Origin: a virus
Length of the DNA stretch: 64,000 nucleotides
Strand: one strand, 5' to 3'
Virus record (IMG/VR): IMGVR_UViG_3300031910_000005
Coordinates: 211 to 64,210 of that record
Of the stretch, positions 1 through 20,793 are shown in pieces (within the stretch, counting starts at the first letter, position 1; every line of letters begins with the position of its first letter). The translations under genes and the position numbers were made by a program. A model generated the notes under the pieces. It was given only the letters and a program-made list of their open reading frames with translations, searched no databases and was not told the DNA's origin.

Positions 1-939
1 CCCGGGCTTCGGCAGCACGATGACGACACCGCCGCCATCGTTCCCAGCCGCGCTCGCAGCGGCTTGGATGGTCTGGTACGGCGCCCCGGATCCCGCAGGC
101 CCGACGAGATAGCGCGACAGCCCCATGAACGGATCGAAGTCGCCGCCATTGAACAGCAGTTGCACAACGCCGCCGCCCGAAGCGATCACCGTCGCGATCT
201 TGCGACGGATGGTCCCGGGTGAACTGCTCAGCGTGCCCGCTGTGTCGTTGAGATAGACCGCCGTGCCGACCGGTGTGTCGATCATCGACACGCCCTGGAA
301 CAGCCCGTACACCCGCACGCGCACGAGGTCGCCGTTGTTGAAGGCGTTCGCGCCGCCGACCTTGCCCTCGACGATGCCGAGCTGCCCGGCCTGCCCCGCC
401 ATCGTTGCAGACGACGCCTTCGCGATGGAGGGCAGGTACTCCGCGCCCGGCATACCGACTTTGATCTGCGTGCGCGTGTTGACCATCACGACGTCGCCGC
501 GGTTGCCTGCGTAGCTCGCGATCATCACCTGGACGCCCGAGTCTGCGATGAGCGCGTCGAGCGCCTGCAGATTCGCGTTCGCGTCGCCCTTCCAGCCGAC
601 AGACGGATCAGCCTCGATCGTCTCCTGCGCGGCAGGATCACGCAGACGCGACTTCATCTGCCGCACGGCGACGACGACCTGCTGGACGGACTCGCTACCG
701 AGTCCGTGGTTCACGTCGAGACGGATGAGGTAGGTGCCCTCCTTCTTCGGCGTGAACGTCGGGTTCTGCACCGTTGTCGAGCTGAGCGCGTCCGCGGCCC
801 CGGCAGGCTGATCGAGTATCGACCAGAGGTACGAGACCTCGCCGCCGTTGTTCACGTTGTCGAGCTGAACGAGCGTGTTGATCGGCAGGTCCGTGTTGCT
901 GCCGATGACGCCGTTCACCTTGATGACTGCCTGGGCCAC
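1..939 (-). CDS. Tail fibre/virion structural protein, N-terminal part (runs off left edge); PKD/Ig-like N-terminal region
   Basis: Not in ORF track (truncated). GTG at 939 opens MAQAVIKVNGVIGSNTDLPINTLVQLDN...SYLWSILDQPAG...NPTFTPKKEGTYLIRLDV, open to base 1; directly follows baseplate genes. Confidence 0.7.
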   Translation of the reverse strand, partial: MAQAVIKVNGVIGSNTDLPINTLVQLDNVNNGGEVSYLWSILDQPAGAADALSSTTVQNPTFTPKKEGTYLIRLDVNHGLGSESVQQVVVAVRQMKSRLRDPAAQETIEADPSVGWKGDANANLQALDALIADSGVQVMIASYAGNRGDVVMVNTRTQIKVGMPGAEYLPSIAKASSATMAGQAGQLGIVEGKVGGANAFNNGDLVRVRVYGLFQGVSMIDTPVGTAVYLNDTAGTLSSSPGTIRRKIATVIASGGGVVQLLFNGGDFDPFMGLSRYLVGPAGSGAPYQTIQAAASAAGNDGGGVVIVLPKPG

Positions 940-3838: not shown

Positions 3839-5038
3839 TCACAGCGAGTCGGGGTTGCTCGTGCTCTGGATCGCCTGGTCGGGGAGCTGCCCGACCGCGA
3901 GCACGAAGGCCATGGACGTGCGCAGCACCTGCAACGGTTGCGTGATGACGTCGCCGGTCGGGCTGACGATCTCGGTCCCAGTCACCACGAGCCCCTGCAC
4001 TCCGCGCAGCACGGAGATGAGCGAGGTGACCGTCATCGGTGCACCCGACGGCAAAGAGTTCACGTACGCCACAATCGCAGCGCGTGCGGCAACGGTGGTC
4101 GCTGCGATGTCCGCGCCCGCGAGGAACGAGAGCGCGAGCTGCACGGGTTGGATCACGACGGACGCGACGCGGACGTTGATGAAGATGCCCGCAGCGCGCG
4201 TGTCGCTCAGGCCGTCGAAGACCTGCTGCGAGAGGATCTGCGACTGCGTCTGATACGTCGCCGGCGTCGGCGACAGGTTCACGAGCGAGTCGGTGAACTG
4301 GTCGGCGATGATGAGCTGCACCGCGCGCGACGGGCGGCCCATCATGTCCAGCACCTCGAACGCGGTCGCAGTCACCACGCCCGCAATGTCCAGCGCGCGG
4401 GACTGGATCGCAGCGATCGTTCCACGGCGTGCCGTGGTGAAGAACGAGCGGGCACGGGCGCGGAGGCTGTCGTCCGTCTCGTCGTCCGTTGCGCCAGCCG
4501 TCGCGACGGCGTTGGTGACCGCGAGTCCGGCCGGCGCTCCGGTGATCGGTGTGATGATGGACGTGATCGTGCCGATCGCTGCCTGCTGGCTCGACCCGGC
4601 GAGTACGGAGCGGATCGCGACCGTGATCGGTCCTGCGGTCCCGGCAGGGAACGTCGTGGTGACGGTCGTGATGTACTGCCGCCCGTCGCTGGTCCCGAGG
4701 ACTGTGCCGGCGGGGATCGAGAACGCCCCCGCTGCGGGTGCGGCGAGCGAGAAGTTCACCGAACCGACGGCAGCGGACGCGACCTTGCGGACGATCCCGT
4801 AGCGATCGAACACGAGCCGGTCGAGGTCCTGCCCCGTCGCGGAGTCGAGGAACAACGAGGCCGCGACGAGCGCGAGCTGCCCGGTGACTTCGTCACCGAC
4901 AGCGGCCGCAGCGGCATTGAAGATGTTGGTCTCGGTGCCCGGTGTATCGACAACGGCTTCGGTGAGCTTCGCGTTGCGCGCGAGCATCTCGTCCCGGCCG
5001 ATGCGGAACAGGTCATCGAACGATGGAAGGTCAGGCAT
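3839..5038 (-). CDS. Baseplate J-like wedge protein
   Basis: 399 aa; ATGQDLDRLV, IPAGTVLGT, GATDDETDDSLRARA hallmark motifs. Confidence 0.9.
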   Translation of the reverse strand: MPDLPSFDDLFRIGRDEMLARNAKLTEAVVDTPGTETNIFNAAAAAVGDEVTGQLALVAASLFLDSATGQDLDRLVFDRYGIVRKVASAAVGSVNFSLAAPAAGAFSIPAGTVLGTSDGRQYITTVTTTFPAGTAGPITVAIRSVLAGSSQQAAIGTITSIITPITGAPAGLAVTNAVATAGATDDETDDSLRARARSFFTTARRGTIAAIQSRALDIAGVVTATAFEVLDMMGRPSRAVQLIIADQFTDSLVNLSPTPATYQTQSQILSQQVFDGLSDTRAAGIFINVRVASVVIQPVQLALSFLAGADIAATTVAARAAIVAYVNSLPSGAPMTVTSLISVLRGVQGLVVTGTEIVSPTGDVITQPLQVLRTSMAFVLAVGQLPDQAIQSTSNPDSL

Positions 5039-5050
5039 GGCTCGGCTCCA

Positions 5051-5875
5051 TCATAGCTGCACACCGCCATTCAGGGAGAGGGACTGCACGACCTGCACCG
5101 TGCTGCCGGTGTTGGTGAGCACCGCGTCCACTGTGATCGTGAGGATGCCGAGCGCGTTGTTCCACGTCGTCTGCACGCCTGCGCTGTCGATCACAGGGAT
5201 CGCTTCAATCGTACGAATCAGATCTGCTTTCAATCGTCCCAACTTCGACGGTGTGACGATCAGCTTATTGTTCATTCCAAAGCCGTAATCAGGCAGATGG
5301 AAGAACCCGCCAACGCTCGTCGTGATGGCGCGGATGATGAGCTTCTCGGCGAGCGCTGCACCGCCCTCGGTCGCGTAGTCGCCGCCGGGTGTCGTAGTGA
5401 CGGTGCCTGGCACGCCCGCAGTCTGCGGATTCGCGGCGTCGAAGTCAGTGACGCCTGCGTCGTCGTACGGCTTGCTCGCAGCCTCGAGTCCCGGGAACGT
5501 GAAGCTCTCGGGTGAGCTGATCGTGTTGCCCGATGCGTCGACGAGCGTCGTCGAGCTGACCGTGTGCGAGACCCGCCACCCTGCAAGGGGCTCGAGTGTG
5601 CGGATCTCGAACTGAATCGAGGACAGCATGCGCACGGTGAGGATCGTGAGCTGCGCGCCAGTGTCCCCGCGCACGATCGACCACGTCTGCGGGTTGAGCG
5701 CATCGCCGACACTGATGGAGGACTGCGCGAGCGGTGGCTCGGTCAGCGTGGCAATGACTGTGTGCGTGCTCGTCGCCATCGCGAACGTGAGACCGAGCGG
5801 AGGTCCGCCGCCGAGGCCACCCAGTCCGCCCCACGGCCCCAGCCCGAACGTGCCTGTGCCCCACGCTCCGCTCAT
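5051..5875 (-). CDS. Baseplate wedge protein with C-terminal gp25/W-like domain
   Basis: 274 aa; C-terminal KLIIRAITTSVGGFFHLPDYGFG...LIRTIEAIPVI pattern; just upstream of J. Confidence 0.7.
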   Translation of the reverse strand: MSGAWGTGTFGLGPWGGLGGLGGGPPLGLTFAMATSTHTVIATLTEPPLAQSSISVGDALNPQTWSIVRGDTGAQLTILTVRMLSSIQFEIRTLEPLAGWRVSHTVSSTTLVDASGNTISSPESFTFPGLEAASKPYDDAGVTDFDAANPQTAGVPGTVTTTPGGDYATEGGAALAEKLIIRAITTSVGGFFHLPDYGFGMNNKLIVTPSKLGRLKADLIRTIEAIPVIDSAGVQTTWNNALGILTITVDAVLTNTGSTVQVVQSLSLNGGVQL

Positions 5876-6654
5876 TGACCCTTCACCTTTGTCGAGAGGT
5901 AGGTGGTGTGCGCGTCTTGGAAGATCGAGATGGAGATACCGAACTGCGCAATCGCTGTCGCCAGTGTGCTCGCTGCGGTCGCAGCCTCGGAGTGGAGCAC
6001 AGGGTTCGTCGGCGTACCGGTTCCCAGCGCCGTAGCGTACGCGGCGAGCGCAGACTGCATGGTGTTGAGCGCGGTGAGGAAGTCGCTCAACGAGTTCGCG
6101 TAGTCGTTACCCCTCACGTACGCCTGCGAGCCGTCCTGCATCTTCACCAGGGCGCCGGCGGTGAGGTTCACGTTCGTATTGCCCTCGACCGTAATGTCGA
6201 TCTCACCAGTGTCGCCGGACGTGATGAGGCGGAGCTTCTGCCCCGGCTCGACGCGGATCACACGATCGTTGGTCGGTACGTCCGAGCCGTTGTCCTGCTG
6301 CGCAGCCTTGAAGTCGGCGCTGGGATGGTCCGCACCGCTCCACATGCGCGCGATGATGACGGGTCCGGTGTTCGGGTCGCCGTTCGGCACAGCCACGAGC
6401 ACGATGTCGTCGACGTGCAGCGGTGCCCAGTCGCCGAAGCCGTTGCCTGCGTACGAAGTGCCTACGAGCGCAGTCTCGAGCTCGCCGGTCGGCATGAACT
6501 TCACGTCCGCGAAGATCCCGTGGACCGAGTCGAACCCGAGCTGCACCACCGATGCGAGCGTGATCCACACCCGCGGGTCGATCCCCGGGCGCTGCACGAG
6601 CGCGCTGAGACGCGACGGATCGAACGTGCGACGGATGCTGCTACGCGGTGCCAT
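5872..6654 (-). CDS. Baseplate spike/assembly protein (gpV/Gp138-like)
   Basis: 260 aa; OB-fold-like N-terminus with PLHVDDIVLVAVPNGD; between hub and wedge genes. Confidence 0.7.
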   Translation of the reverse strand: MAPRSSIRRTFDPSRLSALVQRPGIDPRVWITLASVVQLGFDSVHGIFADVKFMPTGELETALVGTSYAGNGFGDWAPLHVDDIVLVAVPNGDPNTGPVIIARMWSGADHPSADFKAAQQDNGSDVPTNDRVIRVEPGQKLRLITSGDTGEIDITVEGNTNVNLTAGALVKMQDGSQAYVRGNDYANSLSDFLTALNTMQSALAAYATALGTGTPTNPVLHSEAATAASTLATAIAQFGISISIFQDAHTTYLSTKVKGQ

Positions 6655-8477
6655 CAGCCACCGCTCCCGCCGTTCGTGTTCACGGCCGCAGTTTCGAGCG
6701 CACCGAGGATCGCGCCCGCAGCTCCCCCGAGCGCCGCCGTTGCGCCGCCGGCGACGGCGACCGCGACGATCTCGCCTGCGGTGGTGCTCACGCCGTCGGG
6801 GACCATGCGCGCTTCGTAGTAGTTCTGGAAGTCGAAGTCGATGTCCAGCGCCTCGGCTGCGGTCCAGGTGTACTTCACCGTGGACACGCGGAACGCGCGC
6901 TGCGTGGGGGCGCTCTGCCCGCGCGAGGTTGCGACGATCACCTCGGCCAGCCGTCGGTCGCCGATGCGCGAGGCGATCTCGTTGACCTGTGCCTCGAACG
7001 GTGTGCGGTAGTGGTCGGTCACAGTGGACACGAGGGGCTGGCGCGCCCGCAGCTCCCGCACGTCGGTGTAGAACTCCACCGCGTCTCCGGGCTGCAACCG
7101 CAGCAGGTCAGGGTCAGAGTTGTCGCCGCCGAGCGACGCCAGGTTCCGCGTGCTCGCGTTGCCCGTGAACTCGAGCCGGGCGATCTGCTCGTACAGGTTG
7201 CGCGCGATCTCCTGCAACCGTCCCTGGTCATGGATGCCTGGCACGGGCAGCGTGAGGATCTCCTCCTGCGACTGCTGCCCGCCCGGAGCAGTGCGGTTGC
7301 GGCGCGCGGCTGCGGGTGCAGTCGGCATCGGCCACTGCGCCTGAATCACGTTGTCCAGGCCGCGATGCAGCGCCGTGACCGATACGCAGCGCACGGTCTT
7401 CGGCTTCGCGTATCCGCCGAACTTGCGGCTGAAGTGCAGCTTCTGGATGTCGCGCCCGTAGACGAGACGGCGCACGTTGAACGTGGTGTTCGTGCCTGGA
7501 ACGGTGCGCGGCTGCCCGTTCGCGAACGGCGTGCGCACGGTCGGGTCGAAGCCCGCGCGCGACTGATCGAAGATCGACCGCGCGGGACGGATCACGAGCG
7601 CGGTGCCACGGAAGTACGGGATCGCCCCGACGACATAGCAGAGCTGCACGATCAGATCCCAGAAGCTCATGTTGTTCGAGTCGCCCGGAAGCGACGCACG
7701 CCCGCCCGCGCGCTGCCCGCGTGCCCCACGACGATGGCGCGGGACCAGGTCCGCTGCGCTCGGCGCAGGGACAGTCTCGTTGGGCCACTCGGCAGGGTTC
7801 GTCTCGACGCTGAACTGGCCGAAGAGCAGGTTGTAGCTGAGGAGCTGCTTCACGACCGTGTTGATCGGCTGCGAGAGATCGAGCTGATCGAGGATCGTGG
7901 CGAGCACCCCGGGGGCGACGCCGATCGGTGTGTCCAGCAACGGAGCGCGCATATCGCGTCCGATGAGCGAGACCTCGGCACCGCGGTCCGCCTCATCCAC
8001 GTCCCACTGGTCGACGTAGGCGACCATCACGAGCGTGTCCTGGCGCGGGTTGCCGTTCGCATCGCGCGTGCGGAGTGTGGACGCGCGCGAGCCGTCGCGT
8101 TCCGAGCGCACCATGCCCCGGGCGAAGTCTGCGTGGCTGACCGACCCGAGATGGATCTCGACGGCGCACGCCTGCACCGTCCGCGGGTCGATGGGCAGGT
8201 CGCGAAAGTCGAACGTCGCGTTGAACGTGCCCGCCTGACGATACCCGGGGAGCTCCACGGACAGGTGCTTCGGCTGGCGCGAGTAGATGAACGACGCCTG
8301 CTGCGAAGCGCGTTGCAGCATTGCCGGCTCCTGCGTCGGCTGTCCGCTGGCACCGTCCTTCGGGACCCTGACGTTGTTGTCGACAGTGTCCGGTGGCGGC
8401 GGGTTCGCGTTCGGATTCAGGCTCTCGTCGAAGTAGAGCTTGAAGTTGACCGCGCACGCTGGTCGGAAGGTCGGCAT
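6654..8477 (-). CDS. Baseplate hub protein (gpD/Mu gp44-like)
   Basis: 607 aa; VSLIGRDMRAPLLD and RLQPGDAVEF motifs; synteny. Confidence 0.7.
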   Translation of the reverse strand: MPTFRPACAVNFKLYFDESLNPNANPPPPDTVDNNVRVPKDGASGQPTQEPAMLQRASQQASFIYSRQPKHLSVELPGYRQAGTFNATFDFRDLPIDPRTVQACAVEIHLGSVSHADFARGMVRSERDGSRASTLRTRDANGNPRQDTLVMVAYVDQWDVDEADRGAEVSLIGRDMRAPLLDTPIGVAPGVLATILDQLDLSQPINTVVKQLLSYNLLFGQFSVETNPAEWPNETVPAPSAADLVPRHRRGARGQRAGGRASLPGDSNNMSFWDLIVQLCYVVGAIPYFRGTALVIRPARSIFDQSRAGFDPTVRTPFANGQPRTVPGTNTTFNVRRLVYGRDIQKLHFSRKFGGYAKPKTVRCVSVTALHRGLDNVIQAQWPMPTAPAAARRNRTAPGGQQSQEEILTLPVPGIHDQGRLQEIARNLYEQIARLEFTGNASTRNLASLGGDNSDPDLLRLQPGDAVEFYTDVRELRARQPLVSTVTDHYRTPFEAQVNEIASRIGDRRLAEVIVATSRGQSAPTQRAFRVSTVKYTWTAAEALDIDFDFQNYYEARMVPDGVSTTAGEIVAVAVAGGATAALGGAAGAILGALETAAVNTNGGSGG

Positions 8478-16596: not shown

Positions 16597-17012
16597 ATCC
16601 GCACCCGGCCGTTGCCGGCGCCGGCCCCGTTACGGAACCGCGCTGCGAACGGATAGAAGGGAACGCCGAGCGTGTCGCAGAGCAGGTTCGCGTAGAACAC
16701 GAGCTCGCGGCGCAGCAGGTCGGGGTGCGTCTCGCCGCGCTTCGCATCGCGCAACGTCATGTCGCCCATGCGTGCTGCAACGAGGAAGTCCTGGGCCTCG
16801 ACGAGCTTGCCGAAGATCAGGTTGTCGAGAATCCCGAGGATCATCTGCACGCGAGGCACAGCGATCGCCGGGACCTGGTTCATCGCCTCTTCGACAAGGA
16901 AGAGGGTCTGCATCGGAACAGCGAGACCGAATTGGAGCGAGGCGGCAGACGACGTCGAGACGTAGCCGAGATGGAACTTGACGCGGTCACGGTCCAGTGG
17001 GCTGAGCGACAC
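16593..17012 (-). CDS. Head-tail connector protein
   Basis: 139 aa helical protein (DRVKFHLGY) in neck position. Confidence 0.55.
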   Translation of the reverse strand: MSLSPLDRDRVKFHLGYVSTSSAASLQFGLAVPMQTLFLVEEAMNQVPAIAVPRVQMILGILDNLIFGKLVEAQDFLVAARMGDMTLRDAKRGETHPDLLRRELVFYANLLCDTLGVPFYPFAARFRNGAGAGNGRVRM

Positions 17013-17036
17013 GACGAATCACTACCTCCTCCAACG

Positions 17037-17399
17037 TCACTCGGGCATCGGCTGCAGGAGCACGCCCTGCGCGCGGAGCTGTTCGATGTCGTACGAATGG
17101 TTCGACACGATCTTGCCCTTGCGGAGCTGCGTCGACTGCCATCCCGCGTTGCCGATGCGAACGATCTTGTCGTTCAGCACTAGGTACTTCTGCTCCTTCA
17201 CCGCGGGAGGCGGCGGAGGTGCAGGCGGCGGGGGCAGCGACTCCGACTTCGGAGCTTCGGGCTCGGGCGGCGGTTCGGGAGCCACGGCGGACTGCGCCAT
17301 CACCGGTGTGCCGGCGGTCTCGCTCCCCATCTTCGCGAGCTCGAGCGGATCGCTGGGAGGGGTTGCGGTCGAGGGCTTCTTCGGTGCGGGTCCAGCCAT
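17037..17399 (-). CDS. Pro-rich hypothetical protein following capsid locus
   Basis: 120 aa with RBS GAAGGAAGG; low-complexity N-terminus, compact C-terminal domain. Confidence 0.7.
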   Translation of the reverse strand: MAGPAPKKPSTATPPSDPLELAKMGSETAGTPVMAQSAVAPEPPPEPEAPKSESLPPPPAPPPPPAVKEQKYLVLNDKIVRIGNAGWQSTQLRKGKIVSNHSYDIEQLRAQGVLLQPMPE

Positions 17400-17404
17400 G
17401 GCTT

Positions 17405-17880
17405 CCTTCCTTCGGACTCCTCCGCGTCTGTTCGCGCGGGGTGAAAAGGTGATGGCGGCGTCTGTGCGGATCGGTGTCTCGGTGTGACCGGCATAACCCT
17501 GCCGTGGGGAACCGAGTCTTGGTCTGCGCGTCTGCCAGGTCCGTGAAACTTGCGAGAGTCACTGCAACCCTTGAAGTGGTACGAGCGCCGAAGCGCTGAC
17601 TACTTCACGCCATCGGAGACAGGGAGCGGTTCCATGGTCAATGACCAGGGTTTGCTCCCGAACAGGGTGGAGGATCGAACGCAGGAGACCAGTCCTGCAC
17701 GGATCACAGCACCCAAGGGACGACCGACCATTGGCACGGTCCGGCCCCGAAGGGACAGACACAGGTCGGGTGAGTGCCGAGCTGCCTTGCCGGGCGTGCT
17801 CGAAAGAAGAACCGAAGGTTCTTCGCACTCGAAGGTGGGCCCGAAGGCCCACACACCTTGCCGGCGCTACGCGCCGGTTG
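17405..17880 (-). ncRNA. Large highly structured RNA element of unknown class
   Basis: Four UUCG-capped stems (17835-17852, 17806-17824, about 17744-17756, 17584-17597), nested three-way junctions, long-range helix GATGGCG/CGCCATC (17608-17614 with 17451-17457); about 300 nt has no credible ORF. Confidence 0.7.
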
Positions 17881-18414
17881 AACGTACACCGCCTCCTGCG
17901 GTTTGAGCTGCGCCCGCTTTCGCTGCGCGGTCCGTATTGCATGGCAGTTCGCGCAGACAAGATCGCACTTGGCGATCTCCGCGAGAACGCGCGCATGCGT
18001 CGACCGTGCCCGCATGCTGATGTTGAACGACTTCATTTCGCCAGGCCGATGATCGAACTGCATGCACTCCGACGGAAACGTTCCGCCGCAATCCATGCAC
18101 GGCTTCGCTTTCTGCTCGGCAAGCCACGCAGCCTTTTGGCGCATGTGCTTGCGCGAACGTACACGCGCGGGCGAGTCCGGGTGTGCCTCGGCGCGTGCGT
18201 TTTGCTGCGCGCGCACCTTGGAGCGATAGTCCGGGTCGGCCATCTTCCTGACCGTCCACTCGCGCATGTAGGCGTTGTATCGCAGCCGCTGATGGTAGTC
18301 CGTGAGGGACTCCCCTAGCTTCTGCGGTGACGCCGGGGCAGTGAGTGGTTGCGGACATCGTGTGTACCCGTGGTCTCCGTTACAGATCTTGCAGCCCATG
18401 CGCTGAGCTACCAT
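17704..18414 (-). CDS. HNH endonuclease with N-terminal CCHC Zn-knuckle-like motif
   Basis: PCMDCGG...MQFDHRPG...IAKCDLVCANCHAIRT; N-terminal CKICNGDHGYTRC; start could be 18399. Confidence 0.85.
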   Translation of the reverse strand: MVAQRMGCKICNGDHGYTRCPQPLTAPASPQKLGESLTDYHQRLRYNAYMREWTVRKMADPDYRSKVRAQQNARAEAHPDSPARVRSRKHMRQKAAWLAEQKAKPCMDCGGTFPSECMQFDHRPGEMKSFNISMRARSTHARVLAEIAKCDLVCANCHAIRTAQRKRAQLKPQEAVYVQPARSAGKVCGPSGPPSSAKNLRFFFRARPARQLGTHPTCVCPFGAGPCQWSVVPWVL

Positions 18415-18435
18415 GCCCAGCGCACAGACTACAAG
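18388..18435 (-). promoter_or_regulatory. 21-bp RNA hairpin sequestering HNH start codons
   Basis: CTTGTAGTCTGTGCGCTGGGC-ATGGTA-GCTCAGCGCATGGGCTGCAAG pairs fully with five G-U wobbles on the sense strand. Confidence 0.75.
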
Positions 18436-18441
18436 CGTTCG

Positions 18442-19848
18442 TCACGCATGCACCAACGAAACAAAGCGCTTGTAGCGCGCCGCGTCGCCCGTGGCGGCGT
18501 CCGTGCGGACAGGCCAGTCGGCGAACAGCGACCACGCCATCGACACGATCTGCTGGAGGCGGTCGATCGGGGCGCGGATGATGAGCTTGATGCGCTCGCT
18601 CAGCACCTCGATGCCGTTGTTGGAGATCGACGGCTGACCGACCTTGCCGTTCAGACCGGCTTCGGTGATGAGCGCGTCCTGGTCCATCCAGTATTCGTAG
18701 ATGCCGCCCTGGCCCGTGAAGAGCGCGCGGAACAGCGGCGTGCCGGTCGCGGCGTTGCCGTTGTTGAACAGCTCGGGCGCGAACGGATCGCGCTGATCGA
18801 ACGTCGCCGTCGAACCACCGACCACCGTCGTCGACTGCGGGCACTCGGTGTTGTTCAGGAAGAGGATCCCCATGAACTCGCCGAGGGCGTACTGCCGATA
18901 ATAGTAGTAGTCCGGCAGCGCCGTGTTGAGGCGCTGGAACTCGGCGGTGTCGTACAGGCGCGCCTGCGTCACCGGGCTCATGTGGCAGTGGTAACGGCCG
19001 TCGGGATGGACGGGCACGTTGTTCTGCTGGAGGTTCGTGAGGCACGAACGCACGTCCGTGAACGTGGGCACGTCCGTCGAACCGACGTCGTCGACCTTGT
19101 TGCCGCCGCCGACGAGCACGAGATCGCTGCGGTCGATCGTCTTCACGAACGCGCGGTCGAGCACGTTGGTGACGTTGCCGCTCAGCGTGATCGTGCCGGG
19201 GCCGGTTTCGTCCCCGGGGGTGTCCGCCTGGAACGCGATGATGCTGAACGTCGCCGCCGCGCCGTTGTCGAAGATCGAGACGGACAGCGGGTTGTTCGTC
19301 GACACGAGGTCGAACTTCACCTGCGCGCCGTTCGCGAGGTTCGGATTGCGGGCGCGCGTGAGGCCGTTGAGGCGCTTCACGCGGATCGTCGCGACGCCGG
19401 CGAACGGACCGTCGACAACCGTCCAGCCGGACTCGGCCGCGTTATACATGCGGTCGCGAACGGCGCGGTTGATCGCCTGCGACGCCGCGAGACCGAGGCG
19501 ACGCGCGTTCGACAGGAACAGCTTGCCCAGCGCCACGGCGTCGGTCGGCATCGCGGTGTCGATGGCCGGCTTGCCGTACTGCTGGATCTGGGCCGTCCAC
19601 TGCTCGAACGGAGCGGTGGCTGTGTCCGGGTCCTGTCCCGGGATCAGCGGCGACGCATCCGGCGGGATCAGACCTTCACCGGTGAACACCATCGTGTCAC
19701 CGACGTTGCCCGGCCACTTCTGCGGCACAGCCTCGCCGCGGAACATGAGGCGGGGGAAGAGCGCGTTGTGGAACACACGCTCGAGGAGGCCGTCCTGCAC
19801 GATGGCTCGGACGGTGGGTGTCTGCGCGATGACAGAAAAGTCGGGCAC
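18442..19848 (-). CDS. Major capsid protein (N4 gp56-like HK97 fold)
   Basis: 468 aa after scaffold; WTAQIQQYG..IDT, YHCHMSP, PIDRLQQIVSMAW motifs. Confidence 0.85.
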   Translation of the reverse strand: MPDFSVIAQTPTVRAIVQDGLLERVFHNALFPRLMFRGEAVPQKWPGNVGDTMVFTGEGLIPPDASPLIPGQDPDTATAPFEQWTAQIQQYGKPAIDTAMPTDAVALGKLFLSNARRLGLAASQAINRAVRDRMYNAAESGWTVVDGPFAGVATIRVKRLNGLTRARNPNLANGAQVKFDLVSTNNPLSVSIFDNGAAATFSIIAFQADTPGDETGPGTITLSGNVTNVLDRAFVKTIDRSDLVLVGGGNKVDDVGSTDVPTFTDVRSCLTNLQQNNVPVHPDGRYHCHMSPVTQARLYDTAEFQRLNTALPDYYYYRQYALGEFMGILFLNNTECPQSTTVVGGSTATFDQRDPFAPELFNNGNAATGTPLFRALFTGQGGIYEYWMDQDALITEAGLNGKVGQPSISNNGIEVLSERIKLIIRAPIDRLQQIVSMAWSLFADWPVRTDAATGDAARYKRFVSLVHA

Positions 19849-19938: not shown

Positions 19939-20793
19939 TCAGTCTGCGAGGGTCGGATCGAGTCCGAGTTCCTCCATGCGCTTGCGCAGCTCTGCCGGGC
20001 TCATGTCGCGGGCGTTCTTCGCACTGCCGTTTGCGGGCGGTGCAGGAGGCGCCGGGTTCGCTCCGGGCTGCTTCGTCGCCGGCACGCCCGAACCGTTGCC
20101 GGTCGAGGCAGGCTTCACGACGGGAGCGGGAGCTGCGGTCTGCTCGCCGAAGAGGTACGGGCGCTGCTCACGGAGCTGGTCCCAATACTTCGCTTCGTCG
20201 AACTTCGCGAGGCGGTCGTGGTACGCCTTGTTGTCTTCGCCTTCCATGCGCTGCGGAATCGACTTGCGCAGGAGTGCGACGGCAACGTCAGGGTCCTTCA
20301 CACCGGCCTTCACGGCGCTCAGATGGAGCTCGAGCTCACCCTGCTTTTCGAGCGAGGTGCGTTCGATCTCGCGCGCCTTCTTGGCGAGACGCGAGTTCTC
20401 CTTCTGGAGCGTACGGACGCGGTCCTCCAGCTCCTTGATCTGGCGCTGGTAGGCTTCGGCTTCGCGACGGCTCGCACCGTTGCTCTGCCCGCCTTGCGCC
20501 GGAGCCTGTTGCTGAGGACGGCTTGCGGGAGCGCGCTTCGCCTGTGCCGCTGCCTGCTTCATCTCCTCGTAGGAGTTGAAACCGGCAGCCTTGGCTTCGG
20601 CGTCGAGCTTCGTCAGTGCCTCGCGCATGCCACGCTCGCGCTGTTCCTTCTTCAGCGCGGCGATCGTGCTCGGGGCCATGAACTGCCCACGCGGGTTGTT
20701 GGCGCCCTGTCCGTTACCGGACGTGGGTGCCTGCTGCTGGCCCTCGATACCGCCTTCGGTATTCGGGGCGTTCGGATCTGCTTCACCGGGCAT
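19939..20793 (-). CDS. Capsid scaffolding protein
   Basis: 284 aa coiled-coil, ends RPYLFGE...ARDMSPAELRKRM; directly upstream of capsid. Confidence 0.8.
   Translation of the reverse strand: MPGEADPNAPNTEGGIEGQQQAPTSGNGQGANNPRGQFMAPSTIAALKKEQRERGMREALTKLDAEAKAAGFNSYEEMKQAAAQAKRAPASRPQQQAPAQGGQSNGASRREAEAYQRQIKELEDRVRTLQKENSRLAKKAREIERTSLEKQGELELHLSAVKAGVKDPDVAVALLRKSIPQRMEGEDNKAYHDRLAKFDEAKYWDQLREQRPYLFGEQTAAPAPVVKPASTGNGSGVPATKQPGANPAPPAPPANGSAKNARDMSPAELRKRMEELGLDPTLAD

Follow-up and report, generated by a model that had tools for sequence, protein, structure and literature searches.

A structured RNA family between the capsid and neck genes of a tailed-phage lineage, with a mobile HNH cassette beside one of its members

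The IMG/VR record IMGVR_UViG_3300031910_000005 of a soil phage (64,239 bp in total, ∼66% GC) carries a structured RNA of ∼415 nt downstream of its major capsid gene, next to a gene for an HNH endonuclease. We analyzed the 64,000 nt at positions 211 to 64,210 of this record (hereafter the window) together with related loci, and the comparison points to an RNA family with a conserved structure and a fixed genomic context that exists independently of the HNH gene. The genes around the RNA are all on the minus strand, in the order major capsid gene, HNH cassette, RNA and a small gene that we call p120 (Table 1); the RNA is present in a single copy, and the ∼300 nt between the HNH open reading frame (ORF) and p120 contain no credible gene. 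An account in which a resident, cis-acting RNA and an unrelated mobile HNH cassette lie here side by side has, in our judgment, about an even chance of being correct. An original prediction, made from the letters of the window, had described an HNH gene overlapped by a large ornate RNA and had offered a group I-like intron, an HNH-associated ribonucleoprotein (RNP) and a large phage non-coding RNA (ncRNA) as possible explanations.

Comparison of loci supports the structure far more strongly than folding energy does, and one such comparison is that with the closest relative, L002. This locus was retrieved by its capsid protein only (76% identical), with no RNA feature used, and the comparison is therefore unbiased. 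L002 has no HNH gene; 416 nt separate its capsid stop codon from the next gene, and this spacer aligns with the RNA of the window. Across six well-aligned helices (A, B and hairpin C of the first junction, the outer helix of a hairpin termed M, helix C that closes the 3′ domain, and Pa), we counted 38 pairs, of which 15 have double compensatory changes and one is broken. Within stems A, B and C there are eight double changes and no broken pairs, and Pa has three double changes. Helix C, which reads GAUGGCG/CGCCAUC in the window and GGCGGU/GCCGCC in L002, has two double changes and one single change; further variants of it are found in other loci, where a permutation test gave a weak result (self mean of 5.8, cross mean of 5.2). 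L002 also has a UUCG hairpin at the same place as the 5′ hairpin H1 of the window, with a different stem sequence. When the minimum free energy (MFE) structure of the whole window RNA was compared with L002, there were 27 double changes, against 9–18 in shifted controls, and 46 broken pairs, a result diluted by wrong MFE pairs and by misalignment.

Larger sets of sequences gave the same picture for individual elements. For the M hairpin, 87.9% of cells were paired in 37 sequences, compared with 64.9% in shuffles, and the covariation score was 0.526, compared with 0.124 for shuffled sequences; none of 500 shuffles reached this score, and slid controls gave ∼0.1. A covariance model of M (R1) had one match in the window and 31 matches at E<0.01 in 100 capsid loci. 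In the 3′ domain, helix Pa encloses an H-type pseudoknot with stems S1 and S2. Stem S2 was paired in 92.5% of cells in 24 sequences, compared with 55.6% in shuffles, and scored 0.954, compared with 0.232, values that are inflated because the descriptor used for selection requires S2. Stem S1 varies by lineage, with the pairs CCCA/UGGG, CGCG/CGCG, CCGC/GCGG, CGGG/UCCG, CUG/CAG and CCG/CGG. The pseudoknot descriptor matched 34 of 111 spacers, loci lacking M among them, whereas it matched 3 shuffled and 7 reverse-complement controls. As an unbiased check, a contiguous helix of 10–16 bp and of unrelated sequence was found to flank the pseudoknot arm in 22 of 26 loci (self median of 13 bp, cross-locus median of 7 bp). 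An alignment of full-length RNAs by MAFFT was too noisy for a family-wide structure, with Pa in shifting registers, and a covariance model was built for M only; a regular-expression descriptor for the 5′ junction matched capsid coding sequence and was dropped.

The covariation that the original prediction had asked to see was thus found, as compensatory changes in many helices and many loci, and it supports most helices and both stems of one pseudoknot, S1 and S2. A second pseudoknot is a candidate from our reading of the sequences: the single-stranded UGCCA of the second three-way junction would pair with the loop of hairpin C, and in L098 and L128 the pair GGCA/UGCC has become GGUGU/ACACC, a change that was read by eye and carries no statistics.

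One alternative explanation for these observations is that the RNA has no function, and that we see either chance folding of a GC-rich spacer or a coding region, such as a C-terminal extension of the HNH protein or another ORF. Sequence with 66% GC folds strongly in any case, several long ORFs cross the region, and the signal from folding energy by itself is modest (z = −2.47 for the window, where 2 of 100 shuffles fold as well; z = −2.68 for L002; z = −6.3 for L179). The expectation that the RNA would fold better than shuffled sequence was accordingly borne out for 98 of 100 shuffles, but only to a moderate extent. Neither version fits the compensatory changes across many helices and loci. 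Moreover, the region contains no conserved ORF, HNH homology ends before the RNA, and indels not divisible by three are found both between the window and L002 (a 55-nt difference) and in a close variant from a soil metatranscriptome, X15, whose two 1-nt insertions argue against coding. We regard the absence of an RNA function as extremely improbable. Stimulation of read-through or frameshifting at the capsid stop codon was also considered and was rejected on account of the frame-breaking indels in the downstream sequence.

From 5′ to 3′, the RNA consists of hairpin H1, two three-way junctions linked by the candidate loop-to-strand pseudoknot, hairpin F, the optional M hairpin, the 3′ domain and an ACC-U-rich tail (Table 1). 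Much of this anatomy had been recognized from the window: the four UUCG-capped stems are present where they had been placed, as are the two three-way junctions (GAGUGC/GCACUC and CGACC/GGUCG), the GGGAGC-AAA...AACC-GCUCCC hairpin, which is M, and the long-range helix C, which is varied but paired in L002. Two other proposed sets of pairs did not survive the comparison. The first, a pseudoknot between AACCCUG and CAGGGUU, is contradicted by the loop GGG, which covaries instead with a CCC(C) a few bases upstream, and by the AAACCC hairpin, which is invariant or absent; the second, GUGUCUG with CAGACGC, is not conserved in L002. The stem of hairpin F has two fully compensatory changes in the metatranscriptome variant. 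The tail of the window continues from helix C with ACC and UUUU, and in most members helix C stacks on a flanking helix and on Pa. A subgroup (L090, L185, L187 and L198) has a different 3′ pseudoknot. A reading of helix C plus ACC as similar to transfer RNA (tRNA) or transfer-messenger RNA (tmRNA) was rejected, since ARAGORN and Rfam were negative and there is neither an adjacent T arm nor a G3-U70 pair.

Table 1. Features of the capsid-to-neck region of the window, listed in the direction of the minus strand.
Feature	Position	Strand	Basis
Scaffold-like gene, upstream of the capsid gene	19939-20793	minus	PF06810
Predicted major capsid protein gene, 468 aa, complete; upstream neighbour of HNH and RNA	18442..19848	minus	Homologues and predicted fold
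Type A mobile HNH homing-endonuclease cassette (phrog_3106), immediately 3′ of the capsid stop; apparently 3′-truncated, no own stop	17866..18441	minus	PHROG and L170 homology
21-bp hairpin at the 5′ end of the HNH cassette; encloses ATG 18414 (loop) and ATG 18399 (stem)	18388..18436	minus	MFE −37.8 kcal/mol, z = −6.07
HNH ORF as read, 236 aa; residues 184-236 (17704-17865) are read-through into the RNA	17704..18414	minus	Homology ends at residue 183
Structured RNA, ∼415 nt, of the family downstream of capsid genes	17443..17857	minus	Alignment to the L002 spacer with compensatory changes
H1, UUCG-capped hairpin at the 5′ end of the RNA	17835..17852	minus	Fold; UUCG hairpin at the same place in L002
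Three-way junction 1: stem A, UUCG hairpin B, hairpin C with conserved loop C(C/U)GGCR	17772..17830	minus	Comparison to L002
Three-way junction 2: stem D, UUCG hairpin E, single-stranded UGCCA	17725..17768	minus	Fold
Hairpin F, loop CUGGUC (family loop YCGGUCR); absent from L002	17681..17698	minus	Sequence comparison
M hairpin: covarying outer helix, invariant GCAAACCC ... GGAACCGC, covarying inner stem; optional module	17622..17659	minus	Covariation, covariance model
3′ domain, closed by helix C (17608-17614 with 17451-17457); holds hairpin Ha (17572-17607) and the pseudoknot arm	17451..17614	minus	Comparison to L002
Helix Pa enclosing the H-type pseudoknot CCCC-n-AC-S2-GGG-loop-S2′-GGU	17478..17516	minus	Covariation of S1 and S2; Pa against L002
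Tail ACCUUUUC directly 3′ of helix C	17443..17450	minus	Family consensus GCCGCC-ACC/ACU, then U run
Small hairpin (17422-17439), purine-rich ribosome-binding site and ATG of p120	17397..17439	minus	Sequence and fold
Small gene p120, 120 aa, strong ribosome-binding site	17037..17399	minus	ORF and homologue alignment

To describe the family more widely, we used M as a marker. Among 110 distinct spacers that follow capsid homologues in metagenomes and viral contigs, 29 contain it. A longer M motif, searched exactly in viral contigs, returned only the contig of L002, and a looser pattern was then used. In all IMG/VR contigs this pattern found 43 stretches, and each of them follows a homologous capsid gene on the same strand, at a distance of 180–850 nt, and precedes the same small gene and neck genes. 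Of the 25 stretches found in 596 Gb of prokaryote genomes, 24 were chance matches with neither the hairpin nor the capsid gene, and the remaining one was a true member beside this capsid gene. Pooled, these members amount to 44 non-redundant loci, each just downstream of a homologous capsid gene. The carriers are tailed phages of a single lineage, found in soil, sediment and freshwater, and their RNAs range from 330 to 480 nt. The true member from the genome set (L307, JBAZTM010000029.1, the same sequence as L248) is on a 39.7-kb contig binned to a metagenome-assembled genome of Gemmatimonadaceae; it may be a clue to the host or a mis-binned phage contig, and its capsid protein sits on a very long tree branch.

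Within the family, M comes and goes. With its outer helix (∼46 nt) it is precisely absent from L092 and L189 by comparison with L105, at ∼320 nt after the capsid stop codon, and it is truncated in L099 relative to L187. M, the most conserved module, is dispensable and acts as an insertable unit. The RNA as a whole is distributed patchily: mapping by motif on the capsid tree, which undercounts the family, placed it in 42 of 116 loci, with at least nine changes forced by well-supported branches.

The RNA matched no described family. Rfam 15 had no match in the window at the gathering score and none that was credible between 17000 and 18600 at E≤10 (chance matches were DENV_SLA, at E 1.6, and snoRNAs); among the relatives, none of ten had a match at the gathering score, and eight had only chance matches at E≤5. 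The covariance models of ROOL and GOLLD matched neither the window nor its relatives, no tRNA or tmRNA was found by ARAGORN in the whole window or by Rfam, and blastn of the region against 50,697 phage records gave no match. Neither Rfam 15 nor the literature searched yielded a description of this RNA; in a survey of IMG/VR, RNA candidates were only 30–151 nt, and a context downstream of capsid genes is unmentioned (PMC10690425). The original claim of a large ornate RNA that fits no known class therefore stands, and its novelty also stands after the Rfam check that had been proposed against group I, HEARO, ROOL and GOLLD. We rate the RNA as a new family within the loose group of large structured phage RNAs and intercistronic elements, and whether it is new as a category depends on its function.

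The HNH gene has a different history. Its predicted product matches phrog_3106 (E 1.6e-29, residues 32–170, with the match ending at residues 170–176), in agreement with the endonuclease that had been recognized from an N-terminal CX2CX3HX4C knuckle. Pfam HNH models miss this type, which we call type A, and match the type B proteins found at the same junction. The window protein is 56% identical to the HNH protein of L170 over residues 8–183, and homology stops at residue 183 (∼17866). From this end point we infer that the cassette of the window has no stop codon of its own and that its ORF runs through the 5′ domain of the RNA to 17704. The DNA of this ORF tail is the covarying 5′ domain itself. 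An overlap of ∼60 codons between ORF and RNA had been proposed; the overlap is real (53 codons), but it is fortuitous and does not encode conserved protein.

A pair of loci, L170 and L179, illustrates the mobility of such cassettes. Their flanks are 100% identical, and the only difference is a 667-nt insertion 4 nt after the capsid stop codon (L170:4902-5571, against L179:4902-4905). The insert starts with a hairpin (13 + 4 bp, analogous to that at the start of the window cassette) and continues with an ATG and an HNH ORF of 204 aa, which ends at its own stop codon and does not overlap the RNA; CCAC is present on both sides. L179 retains the RNA, so that the empty site that had been sought exists, in a locus otherwise identical to the filled one, although the pair represents the 56%-identical L170 homologue and not the window's own copy of the cassette. 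The two loci also provide a ready-made filled-site/empty-site pair for the study of homing. In the metagenome samples, no HNH-free allele of the window was seen and no contig joined across the HNH gene, where uncovered parts prove nothing.

A second, unrelated HNH family, type B (phrog_1035/PF01844), uses the same junction in L158, L188 and L120, which carry the RNA, and in L107, which does not; an HNH gene without the RNA, named beforehand as evidence against a pairing of the two, is therefore found among relatives. L188 contains two type B genes, at 4934-5647 before the RNA and at 6365-6997 after p120, which suggests that both sides of the RNA/p120 unit accept endonuclease cassettes. The near-identical loci L168 and L169 differ by ∼600 nt downstream of the small gene (1351 and 748 nt from capsid stop to neck gene), which marks a further insertion in the region between capsid and neck genes. 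Relatives of the window HNH protein occur in at least 194 other phage stretches, in many contexts. We conclude that the capsid/RNA junction is probably a homing hot spot used by two HNH families and that the HNH gene of the window is, on present comparisons, a free-standing mobile cassette unrelated to the RNA.

These findings bear directly on the proposal that the RNA is a guide or cofactor of the nuclease, of the HEARO/IscB omega-RNA or TnpB-like kind, overlapping the 3′ end of the nuclease ORF. The overlap in the window (53–60 codons) is what such a system would show, and five of the six HNH insertions at the junction are in RNA-bearing loci. However, nearly all of the 44 members, including L002, carry the RNA without an HNH gene, which refutes an obligate pairing; L170 and L179 show the HNH gene as a discrete and recent insertion that has its own stop codon and no overlap; two unrelated families use the site; L107 has the HNH gene alone; and the homologous protein (∼183 aa) has only HNH matches and no RuvC domain, while Rfam gave no HEARO match. 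Taken together, the L170/L179 pair, the two HNH families and L107 argue that the RNA is neither the partner nor the vehicle of the endonuclease, and we consider the RNP reading barely credible.

A ribozyme would join the two elements in another way, as a group I-like self-splicing intron or as a self-cleaving element that cuts the transcript between capsid and neck genes. In its size range and pseudoknotted architecture the RNA does resemble catalytic ones, and group I introns frequently come with homing endonuclease genes. Yet no Rfam intron or self-cleaving model matched even at E≤10, the capsid gene is intact and of the length typical of its family, and the HNH gene lies outside the RNA rather than inside one of its loops. 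At the site, RNA-less relatives show a terminator-like hairpin and not a joined sequence or exon, the RNA ends in ACC and a U run with no conserved G at its 3′ end, and p120 has its own ribosome-binding site and ATG. The 5′ hairpin that had been suggested as P1 is part of the HNH cassette; L002, L179 and most members lack it, among them RNA carriers without the HNH gene. The intron option failed on these grounds, and a catalytic role of either kind is very unlikely.

The position of the RNA in the operon bears on what it might do. In 24 relatives the spacer between capsid and neck genes is too short for the RNA. Most of these short spacers span 75–100 nt from the capsid stop codon to the small gene and consist of a strong GC-rich hairpin and a U tract followed directly by the ribosome-binding site; the hairpin and U tract passed a strict scan in 12 of the 24 and were recognized by eye in ∼17. 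In RNA-bearing loci, ACC or ACU and a U run come after helix C, and the ribosome-binding site of p120 comes next, often within 0–10 nt. Since RNA-less relatives have a terminator-like hairpin at this slot, the ornate RNA occupies the position of a post-capsid terminator or attenuator.

The reading that we favor, with a likelihood that we place a little short of even, is that the RNA is a cis-acting element of the late transcript at the boundary between capsid and neck genes, possibly persisting as a stable fragment as well. The RNA would be made as part of the late polycistronic transcript; its 3′ coaxial arm and U tail would attenuate read-through, block 3′ exonucleases, or both, and capsid mRNA would thereby outlast and outnumber the downstream message for head completion. 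The RNA may also present the ribosome-binding site of p120, and its compact fold could let it persist as a stable fragment. In the window, the HNH cassette, with its start-codon-hiding hairpin and its ORF, would have entered directly behind the capsid stop codon, on the 5′ side of the RNA, and would then have lost its own stop codon, so that the ORF reads 53 codons into the RNA.

The hint that such a fragment may persist comes from soil sequencing runs. Twelve soil DNA runs hold at least half of the sampled words of the region, and ten more hold small shares. Among RNA libraries, the soil metatranscriptome X15 holds part of the region, and a second run search gave X15 only. Over 16900-18700, X15 yielded a single 342-nt contig (depth of 8.9) that covers 17506-17832 at ∼95% identity, that is, the RNA core with no flanking genes. 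Apart from the insertions described above, the contig has 16 substitutions, six of which form three fully compensatory pairs in predicted helices, while two are wobble-compatible. The contig is a weak hint of a stable RNA.

Several observations weigh against a cis-acting terminator or stabilizer. A standard terminator scan found nothing at the 3′ end of the RNA in the window, where the U tract is a short one and ACC stands between it and helix C. L093 (2373+33..62) and L175 (4912-4943) have a canonical terminator-like hairpin and U tract between the capsid stop codon and the RNA, and in these loci the RNA would be a leader of the downstream genes and not a 3′ untranslated region of the capsid gene. 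Leader lengths form a continuum from ∼220 to 600 nt, which complicates the view of a terminator slot; in these GC-rich spacers, picking the p120 start codon by an automated procedure proved unreliable. The long helix beside the pseudoknot arm, present in most relatives, is absent from the window and L002. The X15 evidence is one assembled contig, which gives no ends or strand and could reflect DNA carry-over. Related phages do entirely without the RNA, which is thus accessory. Finally, an RNA of 330–480 nt with at least two pseudoknots and invariant unpaired nucleotides goes far beyond the needs of an attenuator or a nuclease barrier.

One explanation for this excess is a trans-acting accessory ncRNA of the ROOL/GOLLD kind, which would ride on the strongly expressed late transcript, be trimmed to a stable, compact particle, perhaps multimeric or protein-bound, and act elsewhere, for example as a structural cofactor or as a decoy for a host defence triggered by capsid production. 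This reading accommodates the size of the RNA, its several pseudoknots and the invariant unpaired nucleotides of M and the pseudoknot, as well as the modular gain and loss of M, the patchy accessory distribution, the RNA-only contig of X15 and the hairpins upstream of the RNA in L093 and L175. In contrast, ROOL and GOLLD are not tied to one junction, whereas every copy found of this RNA lies in sense orientation in the gap that separates the capsid gene from p120, with its 3′ end abutting the ribosome-binding site of the next gene. A scan limited to sigma-70-type sites detected no separate promoter for the RNA in the window, L175 or L132, and no gene for a partner protein travels with the RNA in the flanks examined. 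The ROOL/GOLLD-like option of the original prediction is thus the nearest analogy, but it has no covariance-model match, and the fixed late-operon position points at least equally to a role in cis. We consider a trans-acting RNA possible but distinctly less probable than not.

A related and equally tentative possibility is that the RNA represents a new class with an activity of its own, either a switch that responds to a ligand or protein and sets read-through from the capsid gene to the neck and tail genes, or a self-assembling or decoy RNA made in bulk late in infection; the invariant nucleotides of M and the pseudoknot would then be a putative binding site.

The analysis also covered the neighboring genes. 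The placement of the RNA behind the major capsid gene was correct as judged by the predicted fold: the 468-aa protein has no Pfam or PHROG family match, but it has 602 homologues of ∼468 aa with the same length and C-terminus, and its AlphaFold model (predicted local distance difference test score of 71.8) matched solved HK97-fold phage capsids with a Foldseek probability of 1.00 (E 5e-7). The ORF is thus predicted to encode a complete HK97-fold major capsid protein. The p120 protein has a DPLEAAK-like N-terminus and a Pro/Ala-rich linker, which together form a disordered N-terminal part, and a small beta-rich C-terminal domain of ∼55 aa with the motif YRV...G...L..G..VS...YG...GV.LE, which is conserved in its family. 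It has no Pfam or PHROG family, and its structure model (score of 79) had no significant match in the PDB. The gene occurs in relatives both with and without the RNA, and its product may be a head accessory protein. The neck genes downstream of p120 include a phrog_5 tail completion/Neck1 gene.

Few bacterial and phage RNAs both exceed 300 nt and have a conserved tertiary structure, and new classes have tended to reveal new biochemistry. The family described here has dozens of diverse members in a fixed position between the gene for the most abundant virion protein and the low-copy genes for head completion. It also comes with natural controls, namely relatives with a plain terminator-like hairpin, relatives that lack only M and a pair that differs by the HNH cassette, and with these the old question of how the ratio of capsid to neck expression is set within one operon becomes directly testable. 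The junction itself is a clean example of a probable homing-endonuclease hot spot with two HNH families.

Among known systems, terminators and mRNA stabilizers are found behind highly expressed genes, as with T-phi after gene 10 of T7 and the hairpins of the puf operon of Rhodobacter. The RNA resembles these in lying directly after the most highly expressed late gene and in having a GC-rich terminal helix followed by a U run; it is, however, ten times larger, has conserved tertiary motifs and pseudoknots, and its U tract is short and offset by ACC. The Mu-gpT-DE motif of Rfam is a small conserved structure downstream of the major head subunit gene of Mu-like phages. It shares with this RNA a consistent position downstream of a phage capsid gene, but it is small, it belongs to phages of other hosts, and it was not matched here at any threshold tried. 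A group I intron with an HNH gene would likewise place a structured RNA of similar size beside an HNH gene in a phage structural module, but this locus has no exon context and no core match, and its HNH ORF is not contained in the RNA, which is also found where the ORF is missing.

T4-like phages carry free-standing homing endonuclease genes (seg and mob, of the HNH and GIY-YIG types). The HNH cassette shares with them its intron-less insertion between conserved genes, its polymorphic presence in otherwise identical genomes and a hairpin that hides the start codon; the cassette of the window differs in lacking its own stop codon and reading into the RNA, and cleavage is here a prediction from sequence. 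ROOL and GOLLD RNAs measure ∼580–800 nt. Like them, the RNA described here is large, multi-domain, pseudoknotted, carried by phages or prophages, and accessory. Cryo-EM structures are available for ROOL and GOLLD, which are large ornate RNAs (PMC12286853). Our RNA differs from both in being smaller, in being locked to one late-operon junction and in placing its 3′ end at a ribosome-binding site.

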